The notes beneath the pieces were generated by a model, which saw only the letters and a program-made list of their open reading frames with translations, was not told the origin of the DNA and made no database searches. A stretch of DNA of 63,636 bases, counting the filler, from Collodictyon triciliatum (Eukaryota): the NCBI GenBank assembly GCA_043381765.1. It is 7 parts of 7 records of this genome, joined end to end, with 100 filler letters (N's around TTAATTAATTAA, not from the genome) between each part and the next. Parts side by side here need not be neighbours in the genome. Positions count along the whole stretch, not along the records: positions 10,573 to 21,040 come from JBHJMP010002664.1; 6 more parts are not named here. One strand, given 5' to 3'. Made by a program: the position numbers and the translations under genes. Shown piece by piece: positions 10,722 through 58,966 of this stretch. How positions within the stretch are numbered: position 1 is the first letter of the stretch; every line of letters starts with the position of its first letter.

Positions 10722-13700
10722 ATGGCCCACAACTTACTAGCAATACAGCCCACCATGCGCAAGCACCGCCACTCCTCGCGCAGCAGCGATCGTTCGATCC
10801 CGCTGCCCACGATCCAAGAGTCCAACGTCAGCACAAGTGTGCTGCCCATCAGCCTCCCGAAACTTGAGCACATCGACAAACCAGCCAGCTTCCTGCGTCT
10901 TATCCTGTGCGAAGCCTTCCCTTTTCATGCTGCTTTTCTCTCGCACCCGCATGCAGATCCCAACACACACGCCGCGCGCGACCTGCCCAACCCTGCCCAT
11001 CGCATGCCCCCAATCCCCTCGGGTTTCCAGCCCCACCCGCAATCCAATCCGCCACGAAACGCTGCTGCATGGGTCAATCCTGGTGGCAAACCAATGCCGC
11101 CACGGCCTTTCCTGGCTTCTCTAAAGACGAAACCTTCAAACTCGTCCATCGGATCATCTGGATCAAACGGATTCATCGACCAAACTGCAGGGTCTTCTTC
11201 TCCAACCCTCAGCTCAGGTGCCTCTGGTTCGCCAAAATCGCCCTCACCGAAAATTCTCACAAGGAACATGGCCTGTGGTTCCTTGCCAATAATGTCTCAG
11301 CCTATGATTTCCCCATCTTCATCTCCAAACATTGTGACCAAGTCTCCCCCTTCAGCGCCAAAACCTTCATTGTCCTTTTCGACACCAACACAGCCTCCCC
11401 TGTCCTCATCTGCGTCAGGTGGATCAAACTCCCCTAATCAGTCAAAGGCTATACCACCCCGACTGCTCAAGAGGGATGACTCTGAACAAAAAAACGCCAG
11501 TACCTCACAAAGCCCGGTCTTAGAGAGACCCCGTCCTCTCTTTTCAGCCAATCAGAATTTTTCAAAAGCTATGATTAGTCTGCAAATGGTGGACCCGAAT
11601 CAAACATCAAATGGATCATCCTTATCATCTAGTGGGAAGCCAGGTAGAAGAGGGTCCAGGCGATTTAGTTTTCAAGGATATGTTCTTCCGCAAACTGCCC
11701 GAAGATGGAGAAATCTACTACCTAGTGAGCAGCGCCGTCGTAAGCTTGCCATCCCAGATAACATAGAGCTATCAATTATCCTGCAAGGTTTGGCCATGGT
11801 TCTCAATTTCATGTTTCTGTACTGGAGTCCTTTTGGTGCTGGTGTATCAAGGCTCCTGGGTGCTCCAGCGCTAGACAACCCCGACAGTTTCAACAGTTTC
11901 CCGCCGTACTTTCTGGGCCACTTTTATATCCCAGTGTTGAGTGTTTTTATCTTTCTAAATACCATAGGCTCTCTTGTGTCTTTGTTTCATATCCAATTCC
12001 TGGTGATGCTACTGGGCCCTAAACTCTACAAATTATGCGATGAGGTCTGGTACTTTGTAGTATCGTCTCTTGTTATGCCAATTACATCTGTTTTGCTGTC
12101 CTCAATGCTTTGTCGTGATGACCCCCGCAATGGCCAAAGGATACACGAGATCGACCACTCGCTTATATGTTGGAGTAATGGCCACATATCATTAGTGATA
12201 TTCAGTCTTTTAAGCGTGTCTACTCTAATATACTACTCTTTATTTAAGCGAGTGGAATTCTTCTCCATCCTGGAGCGTGCAAAGACATCAAATGGAAACT
12301 TTTTTTACGAGTCAAATCCTTGGGGGTTCATGACCCGATTCCTAATTCAAGCTGTATTTTGTGCCAACTCACTATTCGTCGTTCCTGTGGAGCGCCAAAT
12401 AGCAAAACTTATTTACTTTCTATGTGCTTTTGGCAACTTTATTCTGATAAACACAAATATGTCTTATGAAAATCCTCGCTGCCACGGAATATCAGGTTCT
12501 CTTGCTGCGTGTGTCATTATTCCACAAGCCATATCATTCACACATGGCGTTCATATCGGAGTCCTTGCTGGAATTACAATACTCGTATCGTTCATTTCTT
12601 ACATATTCTGCGTCGCCCGAGCGGTTTACACAAAATACTCCTTTCTGCATCGCTTAATCGATGAAAATCCCACAGTCATTCGTAAAGACTACGATTCCCG
12701 CATCGGAAGAGAGTTGCTCAGCTCTTTTAAGGACGGACAGTACAACACCAAAGATCATGTCATCTTATTATCCTCAAAATTACACAGTTGTAACTACATT
12801 TTCATTGAACATTGGTGTTGTGTTATTGGACGGCCTCAATCATTCTTTCACACAGAATGGATATCAAAAGTTGTAGCCATCGATCTCAGTAGAAACTCAC
12901 TTACCTCTAGTCATATCTACCATCTGTCTCGGGCTATGCTAACTCAGGACTCCAGAGTACAAAAATTGTGCTTATCTTATAACCAACTTTGTGTCCTTAG
13001 TAGTTTCCCCTTGTCATGCCTGATATACTACCATACACACCTCAAGGAGCTTATCTTGGACTTTAATCCCTCCATCACCCTTGCTGGGTTTCGTTACATT
13101 GTAAACTCGATCATATCAAGCCCAAACAAAAGCCTTGCCCACCTTAGTGTTAACTTCTGCAACCTGGGGAGCGACTGTGCAATCCCCATATCCAAGCTCC
13201 TCTGCTCTCAAACACACCACCTTTCTCGACTGAGTGTACAGGGCAACGAATTGGGAGTCAAAGGCGCAGAGATAATCTCTGATGCAATTACCCTGAACGG
13301 GGGGCGAGATATCAGTCTTCAGTTGGAATGGAATAATATGAAAAAGCAAGGGGTAGAGATGCTTCTTAACAGCATTCAGATAGAGAACAGTGAGCACCGT
13401 CACAAATCCAAGCCCATTGAAGGACCACAACTGGGAGTACTAAGAAACGGGCTTTCAAAGGAGGACTTTGCCAACATTCCCAAATCAGGACCTGACGACG
13501 TGGTTGAGTTTGAATCGGATGTAAACGAAGTGAAGCCTTTCCTTGATGAGCCCGTCACACATCCAACACAGACACAAGAAACACCTGGGCGAACCGAACA
13601 GGCTGAACCGGACTCTATTCTCTCCGAAATAGGTGGGCACGAGGTTATGGAAGGGGTCATCCAGGTCTTTTGTCTTCGAATCCTAAACGATCCAATACTT

Positions 13701-14072
13701 TCTCGTTTCTTTGAAAGGGTCAACATGGTTGCATTACGGGCGCACTTGTCTCACTTTTTTGCCACAACTTTCGGTGACCTTGAGCGTTCTATGAGGGTTA
13801 ACATACGACGGGTCCATTCGCACCTCCAAGTTACAGACGACCACTACGACATCTACGTAGAGTTGTTGATTGCTTCCATCCTGGAGATGAAGCCAGGACT
13901 TACGCCAAAGTCGCTCAGAAAAATCACAAAAATTCTAGAGTCCTTTAGAAATGAGGTAGTTACACGTGGTGGCGAGACATCGAAAAAATCCAGGCAAACG
14001 TGGTGGAGTTATCTCCCTATCACTCTTTCCAGATTCCTTTACGCAGAGAAATCTGACCAGCCGCCTGTGTAA
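10722..14072 (+). CDS. Intronless multidomain membrane protein: disordered Ser/Pro N-terminus, about 8 TM helices, RNI-like LRRs, C-terminal group I truncated haemoglobin
   Basis: Single 3.35-kb ORF; start is ATG 10722 or CCACCATG 10755. Hydrophobic helices at about 11766-12630 with a C...DHSLICWSNGH loop. LRRs (IDLSRNSL, LCLSYNQL, LILDFNPSI, LSVNFCNLG, LSVQGNELG, LQLEWNNM) at about 12868-13390. Globin at 13614-13964: ILSEIGG...VFCLRILNDPILSRFF...RAHLSHFF...FG...RRVHSHL..TDDHYD. Confidence 0.85.
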   Translation: MAHNLLAIQPTMRKHRHSSRSSDRSIPLPTIQESNVSTSVLPISLPKLEHIDKPASFLRLILCEAFPFHAAFLSHPHADPNTHAARDLPNPAHRMPPIPSGFQPHPQSNPPRNAAAWVNPGGKPMPPRPFLASLKTKPSNSSIGSSGSNGFIDQTAGSSSPTLSSGASGSPKSPSPKILTRNMACGSLPIMSQPMISPSSSPNIVTKSPPSAPKPSLSFSTPTQPPLSSSASGGSNSPNQSKAIPPRLLKRDDSEQKNASTSQSPVLERPRPLFSANQNFSKAMISLQMVDPNQTSNGSSLSSSGKPGRRGSRRFSFQGYVLPQTARRWRNLLPSEQRRRKLAIPDNIELSIILQGLAMVLNFMFLYWSPFGAGVSRLLGAPALDNPDSFNSFPPYFLGHFYIPVLSVFIFLNTIGSLVSLFHIQFLVMLLGPKLYKLCDEVWYFVVSSLVMPITSVLLSSMLCRDDPRNGQRIHEIDHSLICWSNGHISLVIFSLLSVSTLIYYSLFKRVEFFSILERAKTSNGNFFYESNPWGFMTRFLIQAVFCANSLFVVPVERQIAKLIYFLCAFGNFILINTNMSYENPRCHGISGSLAACVIIPQAISFTHGVHIGVLAGITILVSFISYIFCVARAVYTKYSFLHRLIDENPTVIRKDYDSRIGRELLSSFKDGQYNTKDHVILLSSKLHSCNYIFIEHWCCVIGRPQSFFHTEWISKVVAIDLSRNSLTSSHIYHLSRAMLTQDSRVQKLCLSYNQLCVLSSFPLSCLIYYHTHLKELILDFNPSITLAGFRYIVNSIISSPNKSLAHLSVNFCNLGSDCAIPISKLLCSQTHHLSRLSVQGNELGVKGAEIISDAITLNGGRDISLQLEWNNMKKQGVEMLLNSIQIENSEHRHKSKPIEGPQLGVLRNGLSKEDFANIPKSGPDDVVEFESDVNEVKPFLDEPVTHPTQTQETPGRTEQAEPDSILSEIGGHEVMEGVIQVFCLRILNDPILSRFFERVNMVALRAHLSHFFATTFGDLERSMRVNIRRVHSHLQVTDDHYDIYVELLIASILEMKPGLTPKSLRKITKILESFRNEVVTRGGETSKKSRQTWWSYLPITLSRFLYAEKSDQPPV

Positions 14073-14844
14073 GAAAACCCTGCCCTTCCAATACTTATTT
14101 TTATGTCTTCCTCCAGTTTTTTTTATTCTTGGAAAAAAAAAGGGTCGAATAGAACTTTGCTCTAATGTAACTCATTCATCGCGGTATGCTGCCTTCTGAA
14201 TCCTTATTCTTTTCCACTATCCCTTCCATTGGCTAAAAAAAAAAAGTCTGGTGACCACCATCCCACACTTCACATGGATACAACCCTTGACGCGCTGTTT
14301 TATTTTATTCTGTTTTTTTTTTGTTTTTGCTCCCAACAGACAATTTCATATATGGTTAAACGAATACATATGTAATGTGTCCGAATGCTTATTTGGGTAA
14401 TAGTTAAGAAATAGCTTATTAAGTGCTCGTGACATTTTAACCCGCGAAACTTTTCTGATGTGGAAATCAATGTGGTCTGTCAATATACACAAATTTAAAC
14501 AGTTAATCGCGATCTCGGGCGCACACAGCCGGGTGAAGGTGTGAAGTGGTGTTGTGAGGTTGAGGCTTGGAGGCGGGGTGAGGTGTGACGCCAGGACAGG
14601 TTGCTGTGTATTTGTGCGCGACGGGGCAACAAATGGTCCCCCAGACGGTCGTGCAACACAGAGAAACCGCCAGAAAATTAGCGATTGAGATGTGGGAATG
14701 GTAAAGCTAATTTCAGCCCGAAGAAACACCAGAGGCAAGCTGATAAGTTTCGAGGTGGTATCGATACCACAGATCGACTCCCACAAAAACAAGCAAAATT
14801 TGACCCCATTTCACCGCGTCACCCAAATTATACAACAAGTCAAA

Positions 14845-16341
14845 ATGTCCGTCCGTGGATTCAATGGAAACATCTTCAACCTTCTCGGAGATGACAATGA
14901 CGAGGCCGAAGTAGCCCCTGTGGTCGTTGTTGCCAAGAAAGACGCTCCCAAGAAGGAAGCTCCCAAGAAGGAGGCCGCAAAGAAGGAGGCCGCAAAGAAG
15001 GAGGCTGCTGCACCCGCCAAGGAAGCACCCGCCAAGGAAGCACCCGCGAAGAAGGCTGACGCTCCCGCAAAGAAAGCCGACGCCCCAGCAAAGAAGGCTG
15101 ATGCCCCTGCTAAGGCCGAGGGCAAGCAACAGGACAAGCCCAAGTCCGCCCGCAGTATCCTTTGAATAACGATGCCTTCATCGTCACACACTCTAGTAGC
15201 CACTTCGCACTATTCCTGCCTCTGGGCACGCTGTAATTTTGCTCTTATACTTTCACCTTAACACCGGCTCCCCTCCCACCTGTTCCAAACTTCACGCCAC
15301 CCAATCACAGGCGAAGGAGGTTAGAAACTACACAGCCCAACCCCTCCACAAACCTGTCCGAAGCAACCTCCCATTCAGCCAATTTATACGCTCTAAGCAT
15401 GTCCTGTGCTTGGCTTGAACTGACTTTCACTCGCTCTCCCTGCCCAATAGACAAGCCGCAACGCGACAACCGCGACAAGCCGCGCCTCGTCCGCACTGAG
15501 GACGGTGAACTTCCCGCTTCCCGCGTCTACGATCGCCGCGGAGCCTCCCAACGCCAGTAAATACAACTTTATCAACACGCAGCTACACTCATACTAATTG
15601 CTTGAGAGTTACGTTTTAACTGAACCTGCTGCCCTACCCACGCAGCGCCCCGAACCACGAGAAGCGCGAGGGAGCCGGGCAGCACAACTGGGGCCTGAAG
15701 GGCGAGATCGAGGCTGGGTACGTCCTCCCTGAACCTCCAACCTTACTCACAACCGATCCCCCTGGCCAAACGCTCATCTTCCCACGATCTGCAGAGCTGA
15801 GATTGCCGCCAATGAGCGTGGCGACCGCCGCCGCCCTCGCCGCAACGAAAGGACGACGTCCACCACTGTGGGAGACACGAGCGTGTCTGTGACCATCAAG
15901 ACCACAGACGACGCCCCTGCCCCTGCCGAGGAGAAGAAGGAGGCTGAGCAGGCGACGGAGCAGACCCAGCCGCCCGCGACGGAGGAGGGCAATGCCAAGG
16001 AGCCAGCGGCAGAGCAGGACGAGGAGAAGGAGACCGGCATTTCGTACGCCGACTACGTCAAGCTGCAGGAGCAGAAGGCCCAGGAGCTCGCTGCCCTTCT
16101 CGGCAAGCCGATCCCCGCCGCCGCTGCCTCTGCTGCCGTGCCCGCCTCATCGGCCGCCCCGGCCCCCCGCACCAAGCGCGGCACGCAGAACGTCGCCGAT
16201 GTCTTCCAGGTCCGCTACACCTCGTCCGGCCGCAGCGGCGCAGCCTACAGCCACGCCAAGCAGGGCACCCCCAACGTCACCGACACCAGAGCCTTCCCAT
16301 CCCTCGGCGCCGCCGCTGCTGCCGCACCCACCCGCCGATAA
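14845..16341 (+). CDS. SERBP1: SERBP1/HABP4/Stm1-family ribosome- and mRNA-binding protein (spliced)
   Basis: N-terminal NIFNLLGDD, Lys/Ala/Pro/Glu repeats, RVYDRRG, EKREGAGQHNWG, ISYADY and C-terminal PNVTDTRAFPSLG. Introns start at 15155, about 15557 and about 15717. GC-rich coding sequence. Confidence 0.85.
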
Positions 16342-16675
16342 GCCTGAGACGAGCCGCAGAGGCGTCCGCATCCACATCCGCATGCGCATCCGTCCCTCTC
16401 AGACTCGGCACGCCGGAGCGGCCTCTCTACCCTCTCTCCCACCCGCACAAACCAACCCCGTGCATTAATCTTTTGTTCTGTGTCTTTAGTACTCGCGACG
16501 GAAAATACACTTCGGATTCAACCTCTTCAGCCCGAAGATACAATAATGAAAAAGGGGTCAACACGCATCACAGACCGCTCCGAACACTAACTTTCCCTTT
16601 TCCATAGAATTGTTGTTGGGTTTGGTGGGGACTTCACTTTATAATCTTGCGTAGCGGCGCACCACACAGAGTCCC

Positions 16676-17440
16676 TCAGACGCCCATCCACGACTCCATC
16701 GCACTGGCAAACCGCGGCGCATTGCCTCTGGGCAGGGGCTGAACACTCTCCCACCGCGCCGACCGAAGCGTGTCCACCAGTCTGCTGCACGTTGTCTGGT
16801 ACAGAAACCCGTCCGCTTCCATCTGCTGGGCGAGCTGCGGGGCAATGCAAAGGGTCACGACATCACTATCATTGCAAATCCCCCAAAAGACACGCATTGG
16901 GGTTGCGACTAAAGACAGAAAGGAAAGAGTGGACAGGACAGAAAGGCAAGGAAGAACAGGGTTGCCTCTGCTTGATGGTTGTCCATGAGCCGATCATTCA
17001 CCACCACGACGAGGCGCTTCTTCAAGGCCAGAGCCTCCAACACAGTCCCGGCTCCTGCGTGGCTGATCACATAGTCTGCTGCTTGCAACTCCGCTCCGAG
17101 CGATGGCGTGAAGCGCAGGCTCCTGCATTCCACCGGCAAGGCGCCCTGGCCACTGCCGGCTTGAAGGTTATGCCACTGCGGCTCAACCAGGCCACGCCCG
17201 TATTGCACCACCACCCGGTGAATCCCGGCCTCTTGGACATACGACGCAAAGCGGCTGCTGTTGACCTGGGGATTGGGGGCAGTTGTTTTTCTTTTTCCCT
17301 TCTTTCTGAGTCTCGAGTCGGAGGGCTTTGATCATGGTAGGATGCTACAGTTCTTTTTACGTGCGTGTGTAAAGCGGGTAGGTCACCTCTTGGATGAGCG
17401 CGTCGAACGAAGTGGAGCCCACAGTGACGAGAAGCGCCAT
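16676..17440 (-). CDS. ALG13: UDP-GlcNAc transferase catalytic subunit ALG13 (3 exons)
   Basis: MALLVTVGSTSFDALI..., VVQYGRG, ADYVISHAGAGTVLEAL...LVVVVNDRLMDNHQAE|LAQQM. Introns 17266-17386 (GT-AG) and 16835-16965 (apparent GC-AG). Confidence 0.92.
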
Positions 17441-17619
17441 GCTTCCTTGCGTCGCGCTGCCTTTTTTTTTTTATTTTTTTATTATTATTATTATTATTAT
17501 TCTTGAGATTTTCCTGGCTTCAAGGTGCGTGTGGTTCTTAAATGCCTACAATGTCATTTTTGTCTTCGCCCATTCAAATTCCTTTTTTTTCTTTCTGTTT
17601 CAAGAGAAGACTCATTATT

Positions 17620-18530
17620 TCATCTTTTCTTCATGGCGCTTGGCGCTGGCCGAGATGGAAGCAAGATAGTCGAGGCAACCACAGATGGCGCACTGACAGA
17701 AGCGACGCGGAATCGTGACGGATGCAGGCACACGAGCGGGGCGGATAAATGGCGGTAGAGCACTGCTCGGTGAAGATTATGTTTGAAAGGCGTATCACAC
17801 TCAATCGAGTTGTTCGGAACAATGCTTTTCGCAGGTTCTAAGACGTTTTTTGAGTCGGTTTGGTGACTTGTTGCGTGCGTGCTGAGCAGTTTTGATTGGT
17901 GTGAGTCACGAGTCTCGCCAAGGAAGTTATCAATCTCAAAGTCGTCTGGGCCGTTATCCGCGCTATCAAACGCTGCCTGTCAAACATAAATATTACGATG
18001 ATTATCTTGTTTGTGCTAGGATATAAAACAAACCTTTAAACTGGGCGAGGGAAACCGCTCTGCTTCCTCGTGTTGTCTATTCTCTGAGGGACCGCACCTA
18101 ACAAGATTAAAACGACGAATGAAGTCCGACCGGGACATTTCTTCACCTCCACCAAGGTCGTAAATAATCGAGAACGACTCGTTTGTTGTGATTTCCATTT
18201 CATCAGATAGAAATGTCCCTTGCATATCTGGTATCGTTGAGCCTGAAAGATGATAGGTCATGTTAAAGGCAACTAAACGATATTCTCTAAAAAAAAAATT
18301 AGCTTCTATATGCTCTTCTAGCGCATCTTCTTACAGTATTCATCCACGTCGCACTCATCGCAGCTGTCCATTATTTGAACGATTATGTCTGATACTGTGG
18401 ATTGGCATTCGCTGATGTCATTTGTGGATAAGTGAGAGTCACTTTTGAAAAGATTCTTCTCGCTCATCGCATGTCCACTACTAGATAAATGGGCTTTGTC
18501 CAATCGAATGATTGTTAGAGAAGGAAGCAT
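17620..18530 (-). CDS. Hypothetical acidic protein, at least 3 exons
   Basis: Three open segments joined by phase-compatible GT-AG sites (DEY|CSTIPD..., SPSLK|AAFDS...). No recognised domain. Confidence 0.4.
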
Positions 18531-18569
18531 CTACAATTTACGTTTGTAATTAAATTAGATACCAAGACC

Positions 18570-18678
18570 TATTCTCCCTCTTCATGTGCACCAAGTACCC
18601 ATGTGCTATACACTCGAGCTCTTCGTCACAGTACTTTCTAATCTTACTCACCCACTTTGAATCGAATAAAAGAAAAAA
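18570..18678 (+). mobile_element. Divergent short LINE 3'-end remnant
   Basis: Ends in CACTTTGAATCGAATAAAAGAAAAAA, the same terminus as the other copies. The 5' boundary is uncertain. Confidence 0.6.
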
Positions 18679-19194
18679 CCTAATCCCCACAGCACAAAAC
18701 ATAAAACAAATCGAATCAAATGTGGCATTATTATCTACATATTATATATAATAGCATTTCACCAAACCAAACCAAACCAAACGAAACCAAACCAAAATAT
18801 AAAATCGTACGCGATTATCCTCATAGGTTCACTTTCTGTCCCATGAAATACATTTTTTTTAATTTTTCGGGTATTATTATTTTCATTATTTATCTGTCTC
18901 CTGTGTTCATTTCTGGTTGAGAGCACAGTTTTTTTTTTATCAGAAACTCATGATTGCAGCCATAAGATAGTAAATATCAGTTCCCTACATTCATGTTCAC
19001 TCTGGCAAGCCTGTTTATTGCGATTTTTTTAAATAGTTTATATACTTTTTTCATATGATATAGGCTCGCATATCCCTTGCAAAAATAAAAATAAAGATAT
19101 AAAGAAAGATGTAAAAGTTGAAGTTTTTTTAAAAAATGCACTGCAAACATAAAAATTAACAATACCAAAAAAAAAAAAAAAAAAAAAATAAAAA

Positions 19195-19268
<74 letters not shown>

Positions 19269-19454
19269 AGGAAAAGAAAAGAAAAGAAAATTAGCGCTGC
19301 GTTTCAAAAATCAAACAAGCAGCCCTTTTCTTTTCTTTTCTTTCCTGCACAACCCCGCAAAGGTCACAAAGTAATTATTCCTTTTATTATTCCCGCGTAG
19401 TTTTCAGGAGAAAAGTAAGCCACAGAAAGAAAAAGGGAAGGAAAGCTTTTGGGA

Positions 19455-21040
19455 ATGGAATCAAGAATACTACGAAGCGATCATGACGGAGAGGATGGAG
19501 TAGAGACCGACGACTTTCCTATTCTTGCTATTATGGACTTTTTCAAGAGCCGTGGCTGGGGGAAGCTGAACCAGATCATATCACACAAACTGGGTATTGC
19601 TTATACGACATCACACAGGTTTTACATTTTTTTTTTGTACCAATGGTAAAACTGCTTCTTCAATAGAGGAGACGGAGCCTTCCCATCTTCTAGGACAGAC
19701 CGAATTACATAGTACTATCCAATTTATTCTTTGATATCTTCGCAATATGAATTACGAATTATGAGATATGAATTATGATTGTCATATCAGTAATTTTTGA
19801 GTATCACAAAGACTCTATTGTTTTTAATGCGTTTACAATCCTTATTCTTATTCATATATTCAAATTTACAGTCTAATCGAAAATATTGCAAAAATATTGT
19901 TTCTGATGCTCGTGATGATGAAATTTTATACTCTAATACTTTATAACATAATATTCGCAGAGCTTCTTGTGAGGTCAAGATTCAAATTTAAGCTAGAAGC
20001 TGAATCCACTAAAGCAGCAGGTAAATAAAGGACGAAATAGCTAAAAAGTAATTATAAAAATTGGAGATGAAAAGGTAATGAAAAAAAAAGGGGCCAAAAC
20101 AAAGAGTCAATACATTCAAATGATCTTACTTTATGACGAGAGAAACGAAATATGACATAATTTGCAATTTTTTTTTAACAAATTGTATAATTCAACTCAA
20201 AATAATAATACCTATGTAGATAGCAACTTTACTAGTATGGATACCATTGAACCCATCGAAAAAACTCCGGTTAATTCGCCAAAGAGTTTGCCTGTGGTGA
20301 AAACAAGTACTTCCGGAAAAAAGAATCTATCCAATGAAGCCTTGATTGAAAAGTTTTTGGACTTGAGCCACGAAATAGAGTCAGAGGCAATCATACTATC
20401 ACCAAAGTCTCCTCTATCGCAAGGCTCGAATACCCCAGGACTTCTTCCAAAGTCAACTATCGCACGTTCCGAAAAATTGGAGGAAAGATTCTTCACACAT
20501 GCGTATGTTTTTTTTTTTTATATGATCGATGAAGATGAAATATGAAAACATATGTCATCTCTTATCACAAGTCATTAATTCATATTTTTGAATACACAAA
20601 GATTTGATAATGCTCTGGAAAAATATGAAGGTAATATTTTAGAGTCTTTTTCAAAAATTTTATTTTATTTTCGCCTCCCTGTGTTCGTGTGCTCGATTAT
20701 CAAACCATTTTCAAATATATTCTATGCAAAAAATTTACATACGCCATAATCTTCTATTCCATAATAGTTCAATAATGGCTTTAATTTCTATGATTATATA
20801 TAGATATTCACCAAAATGAGAAAGAAATAAGCTATTACACACCTCAATCTGAAACTGGTAGTTTTTATTGATTTAGTTCTTGTATAAAACATCACCTATT
20901 TGAAACAGCAATTCGAGACAAGATATAATACAAATCCTTTTAGTGAGAATGCCGAACTGTTATTATTATTGAAAGTCTGCTCAATCTAGATTCGGACGAT
21001 TGGGTGGATGATGACGATTGTGGATACCTAACTCAAAGGG
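19455..21040 (+). CDS. Hypothetical multi-exon protein, runs toward contig end
   Basis: Several coding-like segments bounded by AG/GT (MESRILRS..., ELLVRSRFKF..., DSNFTSMDT...). No recognised domain. Confidence 0.35.
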
Positions 21041-21140
21041 NNNNNNNNNNNNNNNNNNNNNNNNNNNNNNNNNNNNNNNNNNNNTTAATTAATTAANNNN
21101 NNNNNNNNNNNNNNNNNNNNNNNNNNNNNNNNNNNNNNNN
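21041..21140. other. Artificial contig spacer
   Basis: 44 N + TTAATTAATTAA + 44 N. Confidence 0.97.
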
Positions 21141-24146: not shown

Positions 24147-27100
24147 ATGACTTCTATATTGGAGGTCGGACAAATAATTCCTCGTAATATCGGGATGCAA
24201 GTCGTGTTTTTTTTACTCGCTATTGGTATGATATGCCCTGCCACACCTATGGAGGAAGCCTGTCGGTATAAGACACCTTTACTTGTGGACAGCGTTTTGA
24301 TGTTTGAAACAACCCTAACCCTGAGGAGCCGTGTACTGTCGGGAACAGAGGGGTATATGACCGTTGGTTCAGTTTATGGAACTAACGAGAATTCTTCATT
24401 AGTGACACGCATTCATTTGCTAACTAATGAAAACAACTGTTGGCAGCGCTCGGAGGAGCTCCACGGTCCCAAAATTGATAAAGATGATGTGCTTTTCACA
24501 TCTATTGCATCTAATGGCAATTTAATCGTAGTTGGTGGTGCAAGTCAGAAGCAGGATATCAGTTTTGTTTACCCCTATGTGCGAACCAACTCCACTTGGA
24601 CTGCCTTAGCCTTGATCACAAGGCCTTATAATAGCTGCTTTGGGAAAAAAATCAGCATAGATAGCAATTTTATCGTTATCGGTGCTCCAGGAATTGATGG
24701 GGCATTCGGACAAGTTGAAGTCTACAAGTGGGAAGATAAAGGAATGGCAATGGTTTCAGTTATTTGCCAAGCGCTTCCAGACGGTCTTGGATCGTCTATT
24801 ACCCAGAATACAAATTACCTTGTGATTGGGGCACCTAAATTCCGGGATGGAAGAGGAAATATTCTCATTCTTACGAAAGAAAAGGGTGATACTTTAGGAG
24901 TGCCTGAGAACATTGTTCCGAGATCTCAATGGACAGGTGGATTTGGATACTCTGTGGCTATTGCGGCACAATCGACGATGGCAATTAGTTGCTATTCCTG
25001 CGGCTATATGAGTATCTTTGTTAAAATAATACAGATATGGACAGAAGAATCTAGAATTGCAATCGAAGATGGGACTATAGGTGCACTAGTCATTTCGATC
25101 AATGGTGCATTAGTAACAAGAAGTCATCTCCAACAAAAGCTGAAAGTTTATGCGTGGTCCAAAGGAGAACTTTTTCTTCATCGCTCATATACATGCGTGG
25201 CCGATATTTGCTGCCTGGAGGAATTAGGAGCTGAATTATACTTATCAGATGACTCTATTTCACACAGCCTTCAAAGGAGATGCCTGAGAGACAAAAAAGG
25301 GGGTTTCAATCCAGGTAAATCATATAAACATGTACAATTGGGTTTGGACTTAAAGTCCGTGTAGCAAGAGCATATTTATAATTAATGCTTAAACAAATAA
25401 TATGCAAACCTGTCCATCCGTAATGGACAAATTCGAATATTCTTATATTAGTAACACTATTTAACACTATAAAAAGGACAACCGGACAAACACACTATGG
25501 TAAACCAAGAGCTGCGCAACCTCTATTTCCCCTCATCCAATACACTGGAAAATAATTATACTGGTAACATATGTTTCTATACGATTATAATTGAATTCGA
25601 ATGTTACAACCTTCTATAGTAATTATTTATTTAACAGTATGCTGTCTATTTTGTGTATTACAGATCACCATAGAGAAGAAGGTTATAATACGATTTTGGA
25701 ATCTATTCAGAGTAAACCAATAGATATAGACACCAAAGCAGTTGGAGCCACACATGTTTCAAATTGCTTTAAAGTTGAGGGTGAAGCCGCGCCGGAGAAA
25801 TGTGAGGACCACTCTCGTATGCATAAAATCTCTAAAGCAGTTGGCAGAAATCGTTTAACGCAGTCAAAGTTTTCAGGCGCCACAAAATTAGATGTCGTGA
25901 AATTCCAGCTTCCCCTGCGGCCTACTCAAACTGAATCGAAGATGATTAAATCCATCGAAAATACCTCAATCTCAACATCTTATTCAGAGTCTGAGTCAAA
26001 ATATGATATCTCACCGTCCCTTTCAAATTCTCATTCATATTCCGAAAGCAGATTTGACATCCCATTAATTGCTTCAACTTCCCAAAAATCGACAATCATA
26101 GAATCTGATTCAAGGATTGAGGCATCTACGCCTTTTTCTGATTCCTTTTCTGAGAGTAAGGTAATCTCGTCATCAACGTCTCGTGCATCATACCATTCTC
26201 CAACGACTAGCGCAGATGAATCAGAAAATAGAATTTCTGCCTCACCTAGCCACCCACATACCGAAAGCAAAGTAATAACACCATCATCGTCAAGCTTTGC
26301 TATCTCTCAATACACCACAAAAACAGAATCGGAATCAGAGACCGAAAGCGAGTCCCAATCAAAATCAGATTCTGTCACACCTAGTCAAACCACTTCCGGG
26401 AGTGTATCAAAGACAGCCTCACTAAGTCCAACACGTTCCCCAAAGCTGAGTACTACAAGGACTGCCTCATTCAGTCATCCGTATACGGAAAGTAAATTAC
26501 GAACATCATCAATAAGCCCACCCATTCCTCAATACACCACAAAAACAGAATCGGAATCAGAGACCGAAACCAAGTCCCAATCAGAGTCAGATTCTGTCAC
26601 ACCTAGTCAAACCACTTCCGGGAGTGTATCAAAGACAACCTCAGCAAGCCCAACACGTTCCCCAAAGCTGAGTAATACAAGGACTGCCTCATTCAGTCAT
26701 CCGTATACGGAAAGTAAATTACGAACATCATCAATAAGCCCACCCATTTCTCAATCCACCACAAAAACAGAATCGAAATCAGAGACCGAGTCCGAGTCCG
26801 AATCAAAATCGGGTTCTGTCACACCTAGTCAAACCACTTCCGGGAATGTATCAAAGGTGCCTCTGCAAAGCTTAACATATTCAAAATCATTAATAGAAAA
26901 AAAGTCAGAGTCTTCGTATGAACCTCTAACTAGACCATTTTCAGAGAGTAAAATGTTTCCATCGCGCACCAATCACTTGTCTGTAAGTTATACGAATACT
27001 GACTTGAAATCTTCACGTGCAGATTCTAACTCTAGATCAAAATCGGAGTCTAATAGTCATATGCACTTTAAGTCCACAGTAGCGCATGACTCAACAACTA

Positions 27101-30100
27101 TGGAAAAAACATTTACAGGGTCACCGTCAACATCTCATTTTTTCTCAGATTCAGATACATATCAGTCTGAAACACTATATATTAGGTCCAATTCGCCCAG
27201 TATTTCTCTTATGCATTCGTTCAAGAGTCAGTCTAACACTAAAACGGAGTCAGATTTTATCTCAAGATCCGAAAATTCCAATACAAAATCCCAATCGCAA
27301 TCCCAATTCAAGTCTCAATCTCAGTCTCAGTCTCAGTCTCAGTCTCAGTCTCAGTCTCAGTCTCAGTCTCAGTCTCAGTCTCAGTCTCAGTCTCAGTCTC
27401 AGTCTCAGTCTCAGTCTCAGTCTTGCCTTTTAAGTGGACATATAAATAAATGCGGATTTTGTGGGCCCGAAGAAGCAGAAGCGACATTAACATATAAATT
27501 CTCTCCAATTACAGGTGGTTTTTTGAATGGTAAATCACTGAAAAAAACACATTGGGCATACAAGACAAATATAACAGGGATATCTAAAGCATATCCAAGT
27601 GCTTCGTTGAGTGTGTCACTTGGGGAAGTGTCTACCACAGTTGACTCTCTCATTGCGGGAAAGGTGATACCTACTAAGCCTGATGGGTTGCTGATTTCCA
27701 AAGATGTATACATTTCCAGCCCTACACTTACCATTCGAGCATGGCTCGTCGGCACAAGAGGTGAAACTATGAACCAAGGGGGAGGGATATACGCGCATAT
27801 CATCGAGTATCCCGACTTACAGTCAAGTTGCATTTATGATGGAATGTCTCCGTGTTTAGTGAGTATTGATATCCCTCCTTCATATTTTTCTCAGTTCAAT
27901 AACTCTGCCACGGTCAAGCTTTTATTTGGCTCGGAACATACAACACTGGACGAGGCTACTCTTGTCGGATTGCCAATGTACAGCGATAACCCAAGGACTG
28001 GAATGAAGCTTCAGTTGCCCCAGCAGCCAGTTCTTTCATCATCATATTTTTCATCGACTCTGACAGCTTTTACTGACGGTCAAATATTGGAAGGGTTTAA
28101 TATAGTAATATCCATACCCTCTGATATTGCGACAGTTGAGAGTATTACAAGTTCGGGGTCATTTACGGGAGCAACAAATATACGATCATCAGATGCAACT
28201 CTAGTTTGGACCAGACAAAGTGGCGTTAGTGATATGATGGTCACAGGAGCAATTAATATTGCAGCAATAAAATGGAAGGTAAAAGATGTCCCTGGTGATG
28301 CAACTGGACAAGTAAAATTCCTAATCAAGCAAATGACCGATGTACAAAACGTACCCATAGTGGAAGACTCATCACAGGGAGATGTCTTCGACATGAAAGG
28401 TTCATCCAAAGTGGGGTTTATTTTTGTTTCTCGAGACGAAGTGCGTGGGCATTTTATTAGGACATTACATAATGATATCGTCAATACTGCTGTACTGAAT
28501 GGAGGCATAATCAGTGGTAGCGTGATTTTGTACGAATATTACCAATACCAAAGTCAGCAGGACATAAGTGAGACATCTGAGTGCACCAGCGATAATCCTG
28601 AGATTGTTAAAACACTCGGATGTCGAATATTACTTAACGGAACAGAAATGACTGGGGCAGAATCTGTTATTCTGCGTTACAAGGATGCAAAGACAAGTAT
28701 TCGTGTTTGGTATCCTATGAATGAGATAAAATTGAGAGTAGATGACTCTACACTGAATCGGATATCGAAATACAAAACAAAAAGTTGTTCGAAAGAAGAA
28801 TTTCAAAAAACCCGCCTTTTTGCAAGTGTAGAGTTTTGGAGTGGAGATGATTTATTTGAAGGGGATATATCAGAGCTGATTACTTTTGTGAGTTCTGATA
28901 CAAACGTTGCTATTGTTGATGGAAACCTTGTAAGCGCACTAAAAGTGGGGCATGTGTTTGTTTATGCATTTGGCTATGCATCAAATGTAGTGGCAATAAG
29001 AGTGACTGACGAGCAAGTTTTCTTGAAAAAAATACAGCCTATTGTCTACACAGACCTGAAAGTTTCGTTTGGGAGCTTTGGACCCGAGCTTCTGACTAGC
29101 ACTATTAGATATGTAGACACTGAAATAATTCAAGCACTAGATTTTGAGGGGAAAATAGCACACATATCTGTTTATGGAGTCCTCTCTGACGGAAATCGTC
29201 TGGAAATTAGTGAAAAAGACGGCTTAATCTTTTCTAGTACAGACCCTAATATTATTGAAATATTCAATTATCCTCCCAGGGTTGTTGCCAAGAGTAGTGG
29301 CTGTGGTTATTACGTTAATGCGACGCTGTCTCTTTGTGGTAATACTATCTTGGAGGGATATGGTTTGGTAAAGCTGGATTTACCGAGAATCACACAGATT
29401 GACGTGTCTGTAGATAGCAGCAAAATTACATCAAAAAGTGACCTTTCGTCAACCATAGGGATACCAACCGAGGGAAATTTGAAAGTAAGATGCTTGTTCG
29501 AAAACGGAGTTTGGAAGGATTTTACTCTGGACCCACGAACAAGATATAGTACTGAAAATAAACACTCTAACAGAACCGTAGAAATAAAAGATAATATGGA
29601 AGGAGATTCAAAAATAGGTGTCTACGTTGTTGCCACAGGAACGACATTCGGGAAAGAAACCATACTTGTGACAATAGCAGATATTGCGGATATGAAAGGA
29701 AGAGTAAGCATTCAAGTAATAGGGTTTTCCGAACTAAAATTATTCTCACACCCTTATCCTTCATACTCTGGATCTAAAGATGTAATTTTAAAGAAACTTC
29801 ATCGGTACGAATGTACACAAGTGTACCAACAGTCAAGTCTGGCGATGTATATGATTTTATCAGATGGATCATATTTTGATATCACAGGACTCTCGTTTTC
29901 AGCGTTCTCTATTCAGGGCAAAAACACTGATATCGCTGAGGTCGTAGGCAAGAATGTCATAAGGCCTATAGGAAATGATTTTGGAGAAATACTTGTGGTA
30001 GGTTCCTACTCCAGCGCCAGTACAAACCTCACAATTGAGGTCACCAATCGAGGTCTTAATGCTAGCAAAATAATCACAAGTTTTCCTGGAACATTTTCTG

Positions 30101-31605
30101 GGATTGCGGAGCTTTCAACTCAGCAACTGACATCATCAGGAATATTTCTGGATGGAACCAAGCACCCATCAACACATACCATCTCTGGACTACTAGTTTA
30201 TTCCAGTGATGATGATCGATCCATAATTTTGGATTCTTCTGGCAAAGCAAGAATTAAAAAAAACTCACAGGGGATTGTAAGAGTCCAGGCATCAACATGT
30301 TACGGAGCCATGGGCTTCTCTGACACATTCGCAAATTTGACTCCTGATGTTGGAGATATTGATTTAGGCAACACAAAAGGTCAAGTTTTTGACGATATGG
30401 TAGTCGGATCATCCAAAATTGTACCTATCCGAGTTAATTGTGGGACAAATAGATTTGGTAGCCTCGACCTAATTCTTCAATATAACGAAAGTACCATAAA
30501 AGTTAGTTCCTATAGCAGTGGTAGCCAATGGCCCGGAGGGCAGTTAGAAATCACCATAAATGATCCTCCGGGATTAATCCGCATTTTGGGAGCTGCAAGT
30601 GCGTCATCGAGCTCATCAGGGATATTGGAAATTGCAAAGATTGTGATTGAGATGACACAGGAAGAAGGGTCCCAGCTAGACGGAGAAATTATAAAGCTTT
30701 TATCAAATGACGCAACCACAACTCCAATCGGAGGCTACCTTGGACCTGGTGACCGACGAAAAATAATTGCTGGAAGCGCATGGTTGAAAGGGGTCGGAGG
30801 TGGTAGAACAATAAGGGGGCCGAGGAATAATTCGGTGCAAGCAGTCAAAACTACAAAGACACAATCTGCTTTGTCAAGACAAACTGTGAATTGTGAACCA
30901 TCAAAAATTATGGGCAACACAGATGGAGATTGTGAATTCTCGGTTGCAGATGTACAATTTGCTCTTCGCTATCTTGCAGGATTAGTCAGCGAACCTCTTG
31001 ATTCGTTTCAATTGCGCATGCTGGATGCTGATGGAAACGGAGCCGTGCAAGTGCAGGACGCTATCTATCTCATTCGTGTTTTGGCGAACAAATGGAGATT
31101 TTTTCATTTTAGCCTTATATCTCCTACTACATATAATTCCTTCGCACGAATACAAATTGATTCCATGAATGCTGATATGAATTATTCATTTGTGAAAACT
31201 TCCTATCGATTACTATTGCTTACTTCGAAGAACATGGACATCAAGATAACCAGGGGAATAGATTTGGTGAAAAGTCATGGTATAGTTTCACTGGAATGTG
31301 AGAACATGAACAATGGGAGTTTTTTGATGGAGGGCCGTGTTTTTCATAGAGAAAAAATTGGGGTTTCGATAAAATTAACCACATATAATACTTTGGGGGC
31401 AACATCAAATGACCGTGAAGTGACATTCTACCAAGGTGTTGGAGGAAACTTAATACCCTTTCAGCTTATTGACGCTGACTATGAAACGGAAGAAAATAAA
31501 ACTCAAACTCAGTCTCAGTCTCAGTCTCAGTCTCAGTCTCAGTCTCAGTCTCAGTCTCAGTCTCAGTCTCAGTCTCAGTCTCAGTCTCAGTCTCAGTCTC
31601 AGTCT
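24147..31605 (+). CDS. Giant secreted/surface protein: signal peptide, FG-GAP propeller, Ser/Thr stalk, TMEM132-like cohesin+Ig array, second cohesin, dockerin; 3' end truncated by contig end
   Basis: ORF 24147-25314 (signal-like MQVVFFLLAIGMICPA from 24195; FGKKISIDSNFIVIGAPG, LVIGAPKF, FGYSVAI) joins ORF 25664-31605 through a phase-1 GT-AG intron at 25315-25663. TMEM132 motifs include DIVNTAVLNG, DISETSECTSDNPEIVK, LNGTE..G, VWYP..IKLRVDDSTLNRI and GVLSDG...SSTDPNII...PRVVAKSSGCG. Cohesin-like at about 30400-30790, dockerin-like at 30913-31086. Confidence 0.82.
26305..26856 (+). repeat. Coding tandem repeat, 222-bp (74-aa) unit, about 2.5 copies
   Basis: CAAT(A/C)CACCACAAAAACAGAATC recurs at 26308, 26530 and 26752. 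Confidence 0.92.
27313..27423 (+). repeat. (TCTCAG)n coding poly-(Ser-Gln)
   Basis: Hexamer repeat in frame with the large ORF. Confidence 0.95.
31506..31605 (+). repeat. (TCTCAG)n coding poly-(Ser-Gln) at contig end
   Basis: Hexamer repeat at the assembly break. Confidence 0.95.
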
Positions 31606-31705
31606 NNNNNNNNNNNNNNNNNNNNNNNNNNNNNNNNNNNNNNNNNNNNTTAATTAATTAANNNNNNNNNNNNNNNNNNNNNNNNNNNNNNNNNNNNNNN
31701 NNNNN
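31606..31705. other. Artificial contig spacer
   Basis: 44 N + TTAATTAATTAA + 44 N. Confidence 0.97.
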
Positions 31706-31810: not shown

Positions 31811-34800
31811 ATAACATGCATTCCCAATTGGCTCTGCGATATGACACTCATAAGCACTCTCGACCTATCAAAGAACGAAGTAACTTCTTGCATATAATTA
31901 CCATTAACATGTATCGTCAACCATTTTACAATTCAGACCATGTACTATAAATAATTTAACAACTATTTAAGATATCTTCACTGCCCGAAAAGATCACTAA
32001 AATGAAAAGGCTCAAGACACTTTTCATAAGTTCGTTGGAGGTTTTTTTTTTTTTTAAAAAAAAAAGAAGATATATTCATGAATGGAAGCAATCAAAAATA
32101 AATATATCACGCAATAATTGACTCATAATATCCTTTTTAAAATGAAAAAATAGATTGATAAATTTCCAAAACAACTCACGTCGATGACTTGGATGGCTCG
32201 TCTTGACATATCAAACAATAATGTAAAATTTTTACAAGACAATACAAAACACAAACATTTCCATTTCATTATTTGTATTCTTAATCGTGATGTGGTACTT
32301 AGGTAGGAAACTTATATATTTTTTTTGTCTAGATTGATTTTATACCAGAGGCAATAGCTTCGATGGTAGAACTGAAGTCACTCCGTTTAAGCCACATCGG
32401 GGTTGTTAATCATGATGCATCAATAAAACGATAATTTTTGAAAAAAATTCCTCCTCTCTGCATTATTCTAAATATTTTTTTCAAATAATAATAATAATAA
32501 TAATGCAGCTCTCGAGCATACCCACACAAATCTATTCGATGACTTATCTTGAGGAATTAGATCTATCCAAAAATCAAGTTGGTAAACAGAGTCCGTGCTA
32601 TAACAAGTCCACTTTGAATCATCTGCTCGCTTCATATCTTAAAATTTCTCATAAATAAATTTTGTAGATATCTACGATAGCTAGCATGTCATACATGACA
32701 AATTTACAAAGACTGGATATGAAGCATAACAGCTTTCCTTACCACACACAAGAATTTCTGAATGCAGCAGATATGACTGCCCAGAAAATAGAATTTTCTC
32801 GTAGGAGCCTTAGGGACGTTCCATATGAGCTTGTTTTACTTCCTGCTAAATCATGGAGAGTGAGCCTAGCTGGGAACATGGTATTTAGAATGGGAAGAAC
32901 AAGAAGAAGAAACCTTTACAAAATTACACTCTTGCATCACGACTATCATATGAGCAATTTGCTTATTCATATATCAATTCTTCATAGCTATCAATTGTGC
33001 CTGATTGGATATATGAGGCCTCATCTATACAAGAAATCGATATATCGAACAATCAGGTTTGTTTCTACCTTTCTTTTCTTTTCTTTTCTTTTCTTTTCTT
33101 TTCTTTTCTTTTCTTTTCTTTTCTTTTCTTTTCTTTTCTTTTCTTTTCTTTTCTTTTCTTTTCTTTTCTTTCTTTCTTTCTTTCCTTCTTTCCTTCCTTC
33201 TTTCTTTCCTTCCTTCCTTCCTTCATTTTTATGACTTTTTGATTGATTTGTTTACATTTCTTTATTCCTTTCGGCCCTTCCAAAATGTATGAAGCAAGAC
33301 TCTTGAATTCAAAATTTTATATGCAACATATGAATAGATTTCCTCTCTACCAGAGGGGTTATCAAATTTGAGGAACCTTAACACATTGACTGCCAGCTCA
33401 CTAATGGTCTGAACACTCGGCAAATCAAATTTGATGAGTCAGTCGCAAGTTTTCATTCTGCTAATCTACTCTTTACTATCAGCTAACAAGCATCCCTGAC
33501 TGGTTGTGTAGAATGACATGCATAGAGTCTCTGGACCTTTCGAAAAATCTAGTATTTATAATCTATCGCATAATTAATTATATATATTTTAAACCCAAAT
33601 GTAAAAGTGTTCGCTTTCCCACTAATTAGATTATTTTCCCCCCTATAAAAGATTTCAGAGATACCTGACATTGTAGCCAATCTAGTCAATCTTAAAACCC
33701 TAGATATTTCTAATAACGAGGTAATTAAAGCCATTCCGTATATATGAATAAGAAGAAAAAAAAGAATGAATGGATCCTCAAATGTCTTTATGCGATAAAG
33801 ATAATAACCCCCCCCCCCCCCCGTGATTTAGCTGGAAAAGATGCCGCCTGTCATAGCAAGTATAAAGGGACTTAGAAATGGGTTGAGTTGTTCGGGTAAC
33901 CCATTAAAAAACATTCCACATAATGTCGTCAAACAAGGACCAATGGCTGTATTTGATTTTTTGGTCGCATTAATTGGAGGAAGTATAAAATGGATGCAAG
34001 GAAGACTTTTGTTGCTCGGTGAGGGAATGGTTGGAAAAACCACTCTAACAAAGTCTATGGCACATAATTTTGAGAGAGAATCATTCAAAAACACAACCGA
34101 CGGCTATAGAGAAAGAACAGACGGGATTGTCCACGTCGATATTGATGACATTATTGTTGGAGATTCAATAGATCCTATATCAATAAAAATCTGGGATTTT
34201 GGAGGGCAAGAGGAGTTCCAAATAACACACCCCTTCTTTTTGTCATCAGGCGCATTGGTTATGATTCTGTATCGCCTCGATTTAGGAAAGGACAAAAACA
34301 ATATTGGGCGTTGGATATCCATGCTTGATAACTTCGCACCAGATTCCAAAATAATCATAGCAGGAACTCACTTAGACGTTGAGGAGAAGATTAGTTCAGA
34401 TGAAATGAACAAGGAAATTAAAAAAATCGTGGAACAAAACAAGAATCACAAGTTTATTCACTCCAATATTAAGCTCAGCAACAAAAATGGAATTGGTGTT
34501 GCAGACCTGAAGCATATCATTTACCAAGGAATGATGGAATTAGAGAACGTAAATAACCAAGTTCCAAATTCTTACGTGCGTCTAAAAGAATACCTAGAGT
34601 ATATTGGGAAGACGACCAAATATGAAAGCATTCAGCTTATATATTCTTTTGCAGAAAAAACTCTTCAGATGAGCACGCACCAATGCGAAAGCGCTCTCAA
34701 ATTCTTGAATGATTTGGGCTCTATTGTTTGGTATTCATCGTTTGATGGAATTAAAGAAGTCGTATTTCTGGATCCACTCTTCCTCATCAATATATTCCGG

Positions 34801-58866: not shown

Positions 58867-58966
58867 NNNNNNNNNNNNNNNNNNNNNNNNNNNNNNNNNN
58901 NNNNNNNNNNTTAATTAATTAANNNNNNNNNNNNNNNNNNNNNNNNNNNNNNNNNNNNNNNNNNNN
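58867..58966. other. Artificial contig spacer
   Basis: 44 N + TTAATTAATTAA + 44 N. Confidence 0.97.

Follow-up and report, generated by a model that had tools for sequence, protein, structure and literature searches.

The window, a stretch of 63,636 nucleotides from the protist Collodictyon triciliatum (GenBank assembly GCA_043381765.1), is made up of several separate contigs, each roughly 10.5 kb long, with six N44-TTAATTAATTAA-N44 linkers between them. On one of these contigs (positions 10573-21040; JBHJMP010002664.1), an open reading frame (ORF) at 10722-14072 on the plus strand encodes, in this order, a serine- and proline-rich N-terminal region, about eight membrane helices, and seven leucine-rich repeats (LRRs), from which a disordered linker leads to a group I truncated haemoglobin (trHb) at the C terminus. 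We are confident that the gene is real, eukaryotic, and free of introns, and that it belongs, as a divergent member, to a conserved, unnamed family of membrane-LRR-trHb proteins.

Counted from the first ATG, the ORF has 1116 codons plus a stop codon and is translated without an internal stop, so the uninterrupted frame described in an initial annotation of this sequence is correct. The ORF begins 150 bases past a linker (10473-10572), and its frame is open, from stop to stop, as far back as the contig start. From 11709 to 14069, frame 0 is free of stops, and its sole stop through 14072 is the gene's own (14070-14072); over 11709-14072, the other two plus-strand frames hold 38 and 42 stops. Just upstream, at 11301-11708, frame 0 has no stops, versus 4 and 7 in the other plus frames, and this segment is likely to be coding. 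In contrast, 10722-11300 is C-rich, and the two other plus frames carry just one or two stops there. Because all plus frames are nearly stop-free in this segment, the open frame is uninformative, and it is uncertain whether the first 190 or so codons are protein or leader. Candidate start methionine codons are at residues 1, 12, 95, 125, 183, 191, 195, 284, and 289. (The same end of the gene lies in a region with a strong C-over-G skew, -0.25 at 10001-12000, so that the coding strand is purine-poor there.) The low-complexity N-terminal region spans 10722-11726 (residues 1-335; 19% serine and 15% proline).

The membrane domain (11763-12665; residues 348-648) has Kyte-Doolittle hydropathy peaks between residues 348 and 632, and a low-confidence AlphaFold model of residues 336-654 has eight long helices, which agrees with the initial count of about eight transmembrane helices. 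The domain has no named family, and it is only 12-17% identical to the membrane domains of other family members. We built a profile from the seven other membrane domains, with this one excluded, and it scored this domain at 28.2 bits (E = 3.3e-8). The best score of the same profile against 500 shuffles of this sequence was 8.6 bits, and the homology of the membrane domain across the family is real. The family's membrane domains also have motifs in common: VPxQ..LG, T.L.MP..RF, SPxExAK (after helix 4), and PY. Furthermore, a loop between helices 3 and 4 (12111-12185) is conserved. In this protein the loop contains Cys464, Cys483, and His488, with the motif C-x(n)-C-x4-H; across eight aligned membrane domains, the second cysteine is present in all eight, the first in seven, and the histidine (four residues past the second cysteine) in six. 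Basic residues are found ahead of helix 1, in the loop that links helices 4 and 5, and in the segment after helix 8. We infer a topology in which the N terminus, the LRR, and the globin would be cytosolic and the Cys...Cys-x4-His loop would be on the opposite side of the membrane.

The initial annotation likened this loop to the membrane regions of protist TmcB/TRP-like proteins. We found no support for this likeness: a Pfam scan of the eight family membrane domains, with E values up to 10, matched zero families, PF06011 included. The sole trace of PF06011 was a neighbouring cluster in a protein language-model search (ranks 13 and 19, with scores of 0.80 and 0.86), which is 25% PF06011, and a literature search for "TmcB" returned only unrelated papers. 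Searching the PDB sequences with the membrane profile, with E values up to 10, gave no matches. Foldseek with the membrane model gave a best E value of 0.7, with chains of G-protein-coupled receptors on top (TM-score at most 0.25), and VIA-align gave a best Z of 9.0, to generic helical bundles, which is under that tool's noise mark for helical models. Because the query model has low confidence, these fold searches say nothing about whether the fold is new. We saw no internal 4+4 repeat when the two halves of the domain were compared with hhalign (probability 0.2%). A word-index search among longer proteins with an alignment of the membrane domain alone returned only P0054, which was itself a row of the input. 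In the language-model search, the nearest neighbours were three eukaryotic clusters (from Oomycota, Preaxostyla, and Ciliophora; 228-442 residues), with scores of 0.83-0.85 for this domain and 0.90-0.92 for that of the family member from Phaeomonas. As a lead, the membrane domain may also occur on its own.

The LRR solenoid (12870-13478; residues 717-919) is of the ribonuclease-inhibitor type, as initially annotated, but has seven repeats instead of about six. The whole protein has just two Pfam matches above the cutoff, LRR_6 and Bac_globin. Pfam's LRR_6 matches the repeats with E = 1.6e-8, and residues 700-920 are similar to pig ribonuclease inhibitor (E = 2.6e-9). In an AlphaFold model of residues 690-1116, built from a 27-row alignment (mean predicted local distance difference test, or pLDDT, of 79), the solenoid has seven beta-strand/helix units, and a Foldseek search with this LRR-globin model found ribonuclease inhibitor and the LRRs of NLRP proteins (E of about 3e-7). 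The repeat is of the 28-29-residue type (LRR_6) that ribonuclease inhibitor and NLR proteins have in common. Unlike those proteins, this one has only seven repeats, which lie between a membrane domain and a globin, and it has no NACHT domain or other NLR part. An acidic linker (13503-13604; residues 928-961), which is predicted to be disordered (pLDDT below 50), joins the LRR to the globin. A complex prediction for the LRR against the globin scored 0.00; it was run without controls and is evidence neither for nor against contact between the two.

The globin domain (13617-13958; residues 966-1079) belongs to group I (N/T1) of the truncated haemoglobins, which are 2/2 globins. Pfam's Bac_globin (PF01152; cutoff of 21 bits) matches at 26.7 bits when residues 927-1116 are searched and at 22.6 bits when the whole protein is. 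Over 117 residues, the last 190 residues match HbN of Mycobacterium tuberculosis (E = 1.4e-12), and they also match solved group I trHbs from Chlamydomonas, Tetrahymena, and cyanobacteria. The predicted structure agrees: by Foldseek, the globin model superimposes on solved trHbN (1idr and 2gl3) with a TM-score of 0.85 and a root-mean-square deviation of 2.6 Å over 122-123 columns, and on the Tetrahymena trHb with a TM-score of 0.89. Most 10-residue blocks of the globin model have a pLDDT of 85-97. The class of the globin is therefore as initially annotated, and the motifs quoted then are all present (Gly-Gly at residues 971-972, DPILSRFF, and His1032 within RRVHSHL). A C-terminal tail of 37 residues (13959-14069), modelled with low confidence, matches nothing.

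To describe the haem pocket, we compared residue frequencies in the 27-row alignment and in 208 globin units from 107 proteins. The B10 and E11 columns were set by aligned HbN mutant chains (TyrB10Phe/GlnE11Val, GlnE11Val, and GlnE11Ala). His1032 (codon CAT, 13815-13817) aligns with the invariant histidine at F8, the proximal ligand of the haem, which is found in all 27 rows and in 204 of the 208 units. Phe997 is at CD1, which is Phe in all 27 rows, and Phe983 is at B9, which is Phe in 26 of 27; Phe E14 and Phe E15 are also kept. By helix numbering, we take Leu1005 to be E7, His1008 to be E10, Phe1013 to be E15, and Tyr1045 to be G8. On the distal side, this globin has Cys984 at B10 (codon TGT, 13671-13673, one base from the tyrosine codon TAT), followed by His1008 and Leu1009 at E10 and E11 (13743-13748). 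B10 is usually tyrosine (24 of 27 rows; 159 of 208 units) and is cysteine in only 3 of the 208 units, and E11 is usually glutamine (21 of 27 rows; 131 of 208 units). This globin is among 37 of the 208 units that have neither Tyr B10 nor Gln E11. In nearly all other family members, B10 is Tyr, E7 is Met, E10 is Leu, and E11 is Gln, and this copy differs. His E10 is common among T1 globins (12 of 27 rows). A histidine or lysine at E10 is a possible sixth ligand of the haem iron, as described for cyanobacterial GlbN (PMC4720485). The same account gives two Gly-Gly motifs for group I trHbs, at the AB turn and where the E helix ends; in this globin the first is present, and the second is Gly-Asp, versus Gly-Gly in its relatives. 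Judging from the alignments, this globin keeps the residues that hold the haem and has lost the usual hydrogen-bond donors to a bound ligand.

To find relatives, we searched exhaustively with HMMER, using residues 330-1116 as the query and E values up to 0.001. This identified 584 proteins, and we took a census of domains in the best 150 of them, which were scored by part of the query. Twelve of these 150 have both an LRR and a globin, in the same order as here, and 8 of the 12 have three to eight hydropathy peaks ahead of the LRR. Another protein, P0064, has eight hydropathy peaks plus a globin. Of the four that seemed to have no membrane part, the representatives P0034 and P0053 are fragments, as longer members of their 90% clusters (888 and 895 residues) match the membrane profile with E values of 6.6e-38 and 1.9e-96. 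In all, the full membrane-LRR-trHb order is found in 11 other clusters among the best 150 of the 584 proteins. The named members are from the stramenopile Phaeomonas parva and from Allomyces arbusculus, a member of the Blastocladiomycota (P0119, or KAJ3370492.1, with six hydropathy peaks in front); the remaining clusters come from assemblies and metagenomes. Bac_globin matches 10 of the 10 aligned family members and LRR_6 matches 9. Both the membrane domain and the order of the parts favour a common origin of the protein as a whole. The architecture is not unique to this genome, and its LRR-globin half was noted in Allomyces macrogynus in 2012 (PMC3287990), but it is not a well-described family either; indeed, it is essentially unstudied.

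Other searches were less productive. A word-index search with the protein alone found no homologues, and one with the family alignment returned six matches, all of them unrelated LRR proteins, of which five were NLR-type (NACHT-bearing). When metagenomes were scanned with the protein, 24 pattern stretches matched, none of which is a relative. Within the window, tblastn found no paralogues, just one chance LRR match (E = 0.53).

Many of the relatives are instead tandem trHb proteins: 60 of the best 150 have at least two globin units, and none of these 60 has an LRR match. The initial annotation took it as established that most group I trHbs are small proteins that stand alone, and for eukaryotes this generalization is too simple. 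(One tandem trHb protein, P0002 from Lacrimia lanifica, is 1882 residues long and has up to 10-12 units. Many units of the tandem proteins lack Tyr B10 and Gln E11.) In a 157-row tree, a clade with a Shimodaira-Hasegawa-like approximate likelihood-ratio (SH-aLRT) support of 98 comprises seven family globins, four LRR-globin fragments, and P0050. Our filter (E < 1e-4 and at least 85 profile positions) left the globin of P0052 out of both trees. For the approximately unbiased (AU) test, we used a reduced set of 67 rows, with every third multi-unit protein and only its first unit, under LG+G4. Forcing all family globins into one clade cost 14.4 log-likelihood units and was not rejected (AU p = 0.39). 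On this evidence, the globin may stem from the family's fusion event or from a later replacement.

Three of four RNA runs contain part of the gene. A contig of 1124 bases from X1 is colinear with 13190-14294; it takes in the last LRRs, the linker, and the globin and extends into the 3' untranslated region (14073-14294, as far as this contig reaches). A contig of 617 bases from X2 covers 13530-14124 and begins with 22 loose letters, which we recognize as, presumably, the end of the SMART template-switch oligo; this marks the X2 contig as complementary DNA (cDNA). Contigs from a polyA metatranscriptome have two exact matches of 144 bases in the N-terminal region, at 11018-11161 and 11237-11380, and the stretches 10573-11017 and 11381-13189 have no RNA cover. 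Co-transcription of the parts, on which the initial annotation's reading depended, therefore holds for the LRR and the globin, which are on one cDNA contig (X1), but the contigs do not span the full length. The X1 and X2 contigs list no difference at the codon for Cys B10, and this agreement between two cDNA-type contigs implies that this codon is not an error specific to the window. Within the globin codons, the two cDNA-type data sets have a single difference from the window, at a third codon position.

Because separate contigs lie behind the linkers (10473-10572, 21041-21140, 31606-31705, 42185-42284, 52743-52842, and 58867-58966), synteny across them is meaningless, and the true neighbours of the gene are only those within 10573-21040. 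This contig opens with a (CACTT)19 microsatellite (10573-10667, no strand assigned), which abuts the linker. Homopolymer or microsatellite runs are found at several contig ends: besides this one, there is poly-A at 1-68 and at 10412-10472. An ORF at 14842-15162 on the same contig has a weak match to Stm1_N (E = 0.01, under the cutoff), and another on the minus strand (16912-17331) encodes an Alg13-like GT28 C-terminal domain (E = 1.4e-15); neither has any bearing on the membrane-LRR-trHb gene. In both the X1 and the X2 contigs, the same 22-23 non-genomic letters are joined to the DNA near 14838-14840, a few bases ahead of the ATG at 14845 with which the Stm1-like gene starts, and these letters are found nowhere in the window. 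They may stem from a trans-spliced leader or from a 5' exon that lies far away. On the contig at 31706-42184, a plus-strand ORF (33841-35616) encodes a Roc-COR GTPase (Roc, E = 3.8e-19; COR-A, E = 3.1e-9), and a protein kinase ORF (35720-37483, plus strand; E = 4e-31) begins about 100 bases past it. These two ORFs are likely to be one gene for a ROCO/LRRK-type kinase, with an intron or a frame break dividing it. On the contig at 21141-31605, a frame of 2020 codons (25591-31653, plus strand) contains a TMEM132-type immunoglobulin domain (E = 1.9e-9) and runs past the contig end into the linker, so this protein is truncated by the assembly. The gene density, the long ORFs free of introns, and the content of these other contigs (Roc-COR, protein kinase, and TMEM132-like) mark the source as a eukaryote.

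What might a membrane-LRR-trHb protein do? The most economical reading, and a plausible one, is that it would work as a haem-based sensor of oxygen, nitric oxide (NO), or redox state. The globin would hold haem b on His1032 and serve as the input. Binding of oxygen, NO, or carbon monoxide, or a change in the redox state or coordination of the iron, would alter the globin, and the LRR solenoid, which starts about 70 residues past the last membrane helix, would relay this change. The target could be the membrane domain itself (as a channel, a carrier, or a receptor) or a partner on the LRR surface. With cysteine and leucine in place of Tyr B10 and Gln E11, along with His E10 and Tyr G8, we would expect bound oxygen to be only weakly stabilized, and the haem site might be internally six-coordinate or thiol-reactive. 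Sensing of redox state or NO would fit such a site better than would oxygen storage or NO dioxygenation. We rate this mechanism as a whole as somewhat doubtful, and the identity of the gene and the mechanism, taken together, as falling just short of an even chance. A bolder proposal, to which we give a low probability, is that the family is a third, eukaryote-wide class of membrane haem sensor, in which a 2/2 globin would gate an eight-helix channel, carrier, or receptor via an LRR lever, and that the haem site of this copy (Cys B10, His E10, Leu E11, and Tyr G8) would be re-tuned to a six-coordinate or thiol-linked redox or NO switch.

Several observations weigh against the sensor reading. 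The binding of haem, the response to a ligand, the topology, the kind of output, and the direction in which the signal would travel are all inferred. The membrane model has a pLDDT of just 56, which leaves the helix count and the topology soft, and the charge pattern across the membrane loops is only moderate. The RNA is confined to 13190-14294 and two short N-terminal pieces and does not form one transcript of the whole ORF; furthermore, the type recorded for runs X1 and X2 is itself a guess. In the tree, this globin and that of P0136 fall outside the clade with SH-aLRT support of 98, on an unresolved polytomy, and this globin's branch is long (1.19, versus a median of 0.49). Its Leu E7 and His E10 follow the pattern of free-standing T1 globins, not the Met and Leu of the family. 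Together with the tree position, this pattern suggests that the globin may have a separate history. Finally, that Tyr B10, Gln E11, and the second Gly-Gly motif have been lost could reflect decay rather than specialization.

Alternatively, the protein might be a membrane-tethered haem enzyme, either an NO dioxygenase like HbN or a nitrite reductase, which the membrane domain would position and for which the LRR would recruit a reductase or another partner. HbN is the closest solved relative, Tyr B10 and Gln E11, a pair linked to NO detoxification, are kept in most family members (24 and 21 of the 27 rows), and this copy retains Phe E15 and an apolar pocket. However, this copy has neither residue of the pair. 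Also, a Pfam scan found no reductase domain in the ORF, and a plain anchor would not need a conserved eight-helix domain with polar motifs and a Cys-Cys-His loop. We therefore consider a tethered enzyme to be unlikely.

Another potential explanation is that the globin has decayed: it would have the 2/2 fold still but have lost the ability to bind haem, and its only role in a membrane LRR protein would be that of a structural or protein-binding module. The rarity of Cys B10 (3 of 208 units), the absence of both Tyr B10 and Gln E11 (as in 37 of 208), the Gly-Asp in place of the second Gly-Gly, and the long branch would all be consistent with decay. But His F8 and the phenylalanines at CD1, B9, E14, and E15 are all retained, the domain is modelled with high confidence in most blocks, and the cDNA-type data sets differ from the window at just one third-codon position within the globin codons. 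On the whole, decay seems distinctly unlikely.

Similarly, it seems quite unlikely that the protein is an outside-in receptor, with the far-side Cys-Cys-His loop as the actual sensor, of a metal, an oxidant, or a ligand, and the LRR-globin part acting as a cytosolic output or modulator. Such a role would account for the conservation of the loop across the eight membrane domains (eight and seven of eight for the two cysteines, and six of eight for the histidine), and receptor-like 7TM-globin fusions (7TM is short for seven transmembrane helices) are described from nematodes (PMC8076648). In contrast, neither Pfam nor the fold searches, the latter with a low-confidence model, gave any likeness to a receptor family. 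We know of no output activity of a globin beyond haem chemistry, which also argues against this role. Lastly, the gene is close to the edge of its contig and begins with about 190 codons in C-rich, nearly stop-free DNA, but a chance open frame, or separate genes joined by the assembly, is very improbable given that frame 0 is open over 11709-14069 (versus 38 and 42 stops elsewhere), that three independent domain matches fall in one frame, that 11 other clusters have the same order, and that a colinear cDNA-type contig spans the LRR and the globin.

The family would matter because haem-based gas sensing by eukaryotic microbes is poorly understood. The globin gives the orphan membrane domain a testable handle, namely how the membrane part behaves when the haem changes state. 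Also, the natural Cys B10/Leu E11 variant could be contrasted with the Tyr/Gln members by spectroscopy.

Among solved proteins, the best match to this globin is HbN (GlbN, PDB 1idr), with E values from 1.4e-12 to 3.7e-12 by sequence and a TM-score of 0.85 by fold. His F8, Phe CD1, Phe B9, Leu E7, and Phe E15 are common to both. In contrast, HbN is a free protein of 136 residues with Tyr B10 and Gln E11, while here these positions are cysteine and leucine and the domain ends a membrane protein of 1116 residues. Chimeric and multi-unit T1 globins are known from eukaryotes (PMC7475203, which cites Hade et al. 2017 on this point). Like this protein, they have group I 2/2 domains inside large eukaryotic proteins, but the multi-unit ones are chains of globin units, and in our census 0 of 60 had an LRR match.

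When we searched the literature for the membrane-LRR-trHb architecture, only one paper turned up (PMC3287990). In its main text, Hoogewijs et al. (2012) describe AMAG_16521T0 from Allomyces macrogynus, which has 1129 residues, an LRR at 578-800, and a C-terminal T1 globin at 826-944. That text presents it as an unexpected by-product and a single oddity in fungi, and reports that FUGUE read residues 20-560 as ribonuclease-inhibitor-like; it mentions no membrane domain and proposes no function. By this published description, both AMAG_16521T0 and our protein have an LRR followed by a C-terminal group 1 T globin. A relative from Allomyces arbusculus, P0119 in our census, is built in this order as well and has hydropathy peaks ahead of the LRR.

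The initial annotation had called this protein a candidate globin-coupled sensor (GCS). As a functional analogy this seems reasonable, but in the strict sense, a GCS of the S family has an N-terminal 3/3 sensor-type globin and a C-terminal transmitter such as a methyl-accepting chemotaxis protein, a kinase, or a cyclase, as set out in PMC7475203 and PMC8076648, whereas here the globin is C-terminal and 2/2, and Pfam finds no transmitter. Globins covalently bound to membrane domains were formerly limited to GsGCS of Geobacter sulfurreducens and GLB-33 of Caenorhabditis elegans, according to PMC8076648, which adds 168 bacterial globin-PsiE and 14 7TM-globin sequences and describes none of them as T-type. 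In GsGCS and the globin-PsiE proteins, the globin is covalently joined to a membrane domain, as it is here, and a role as a redox sensor or in electron transfer has been proposed in that report. However, these are bacterial proteins whose S-type 3/3 globin is N-terminal and whose four-helix PsiE domain is C-terminal, so the order is reversed and the families are different. The nematode 7TM-globins (GLB-33 and an FMRFamide-receptor-like protein of Ascaris suum) have an N-terminal multipass domain and a C-terminal globin, as here, and are classed in the same report as receptor-like globins of unknown function. They have a Pfam 7TM receptor domain and an M-type globin (3/3 or shortened), with no LRR in between, as described there. 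Pfam's 7TM family matched neither this membrane domain nor those of the family; our protein differs from the nematode proteins in that its membrane domain has no named family, its globin is of the T type (2/2), and the two are separated by an LRR. By that report, globins joined to membrane domains are known in only two settings, bacterial globin-PsiE and nematode 7TM-globins, neither of them with a trHb. The family found in stramenopiles, a blastocladian fungus, and this protist would provide a third setting, in which a 2/2 globin is tied to an unnamed eight-helix domain.

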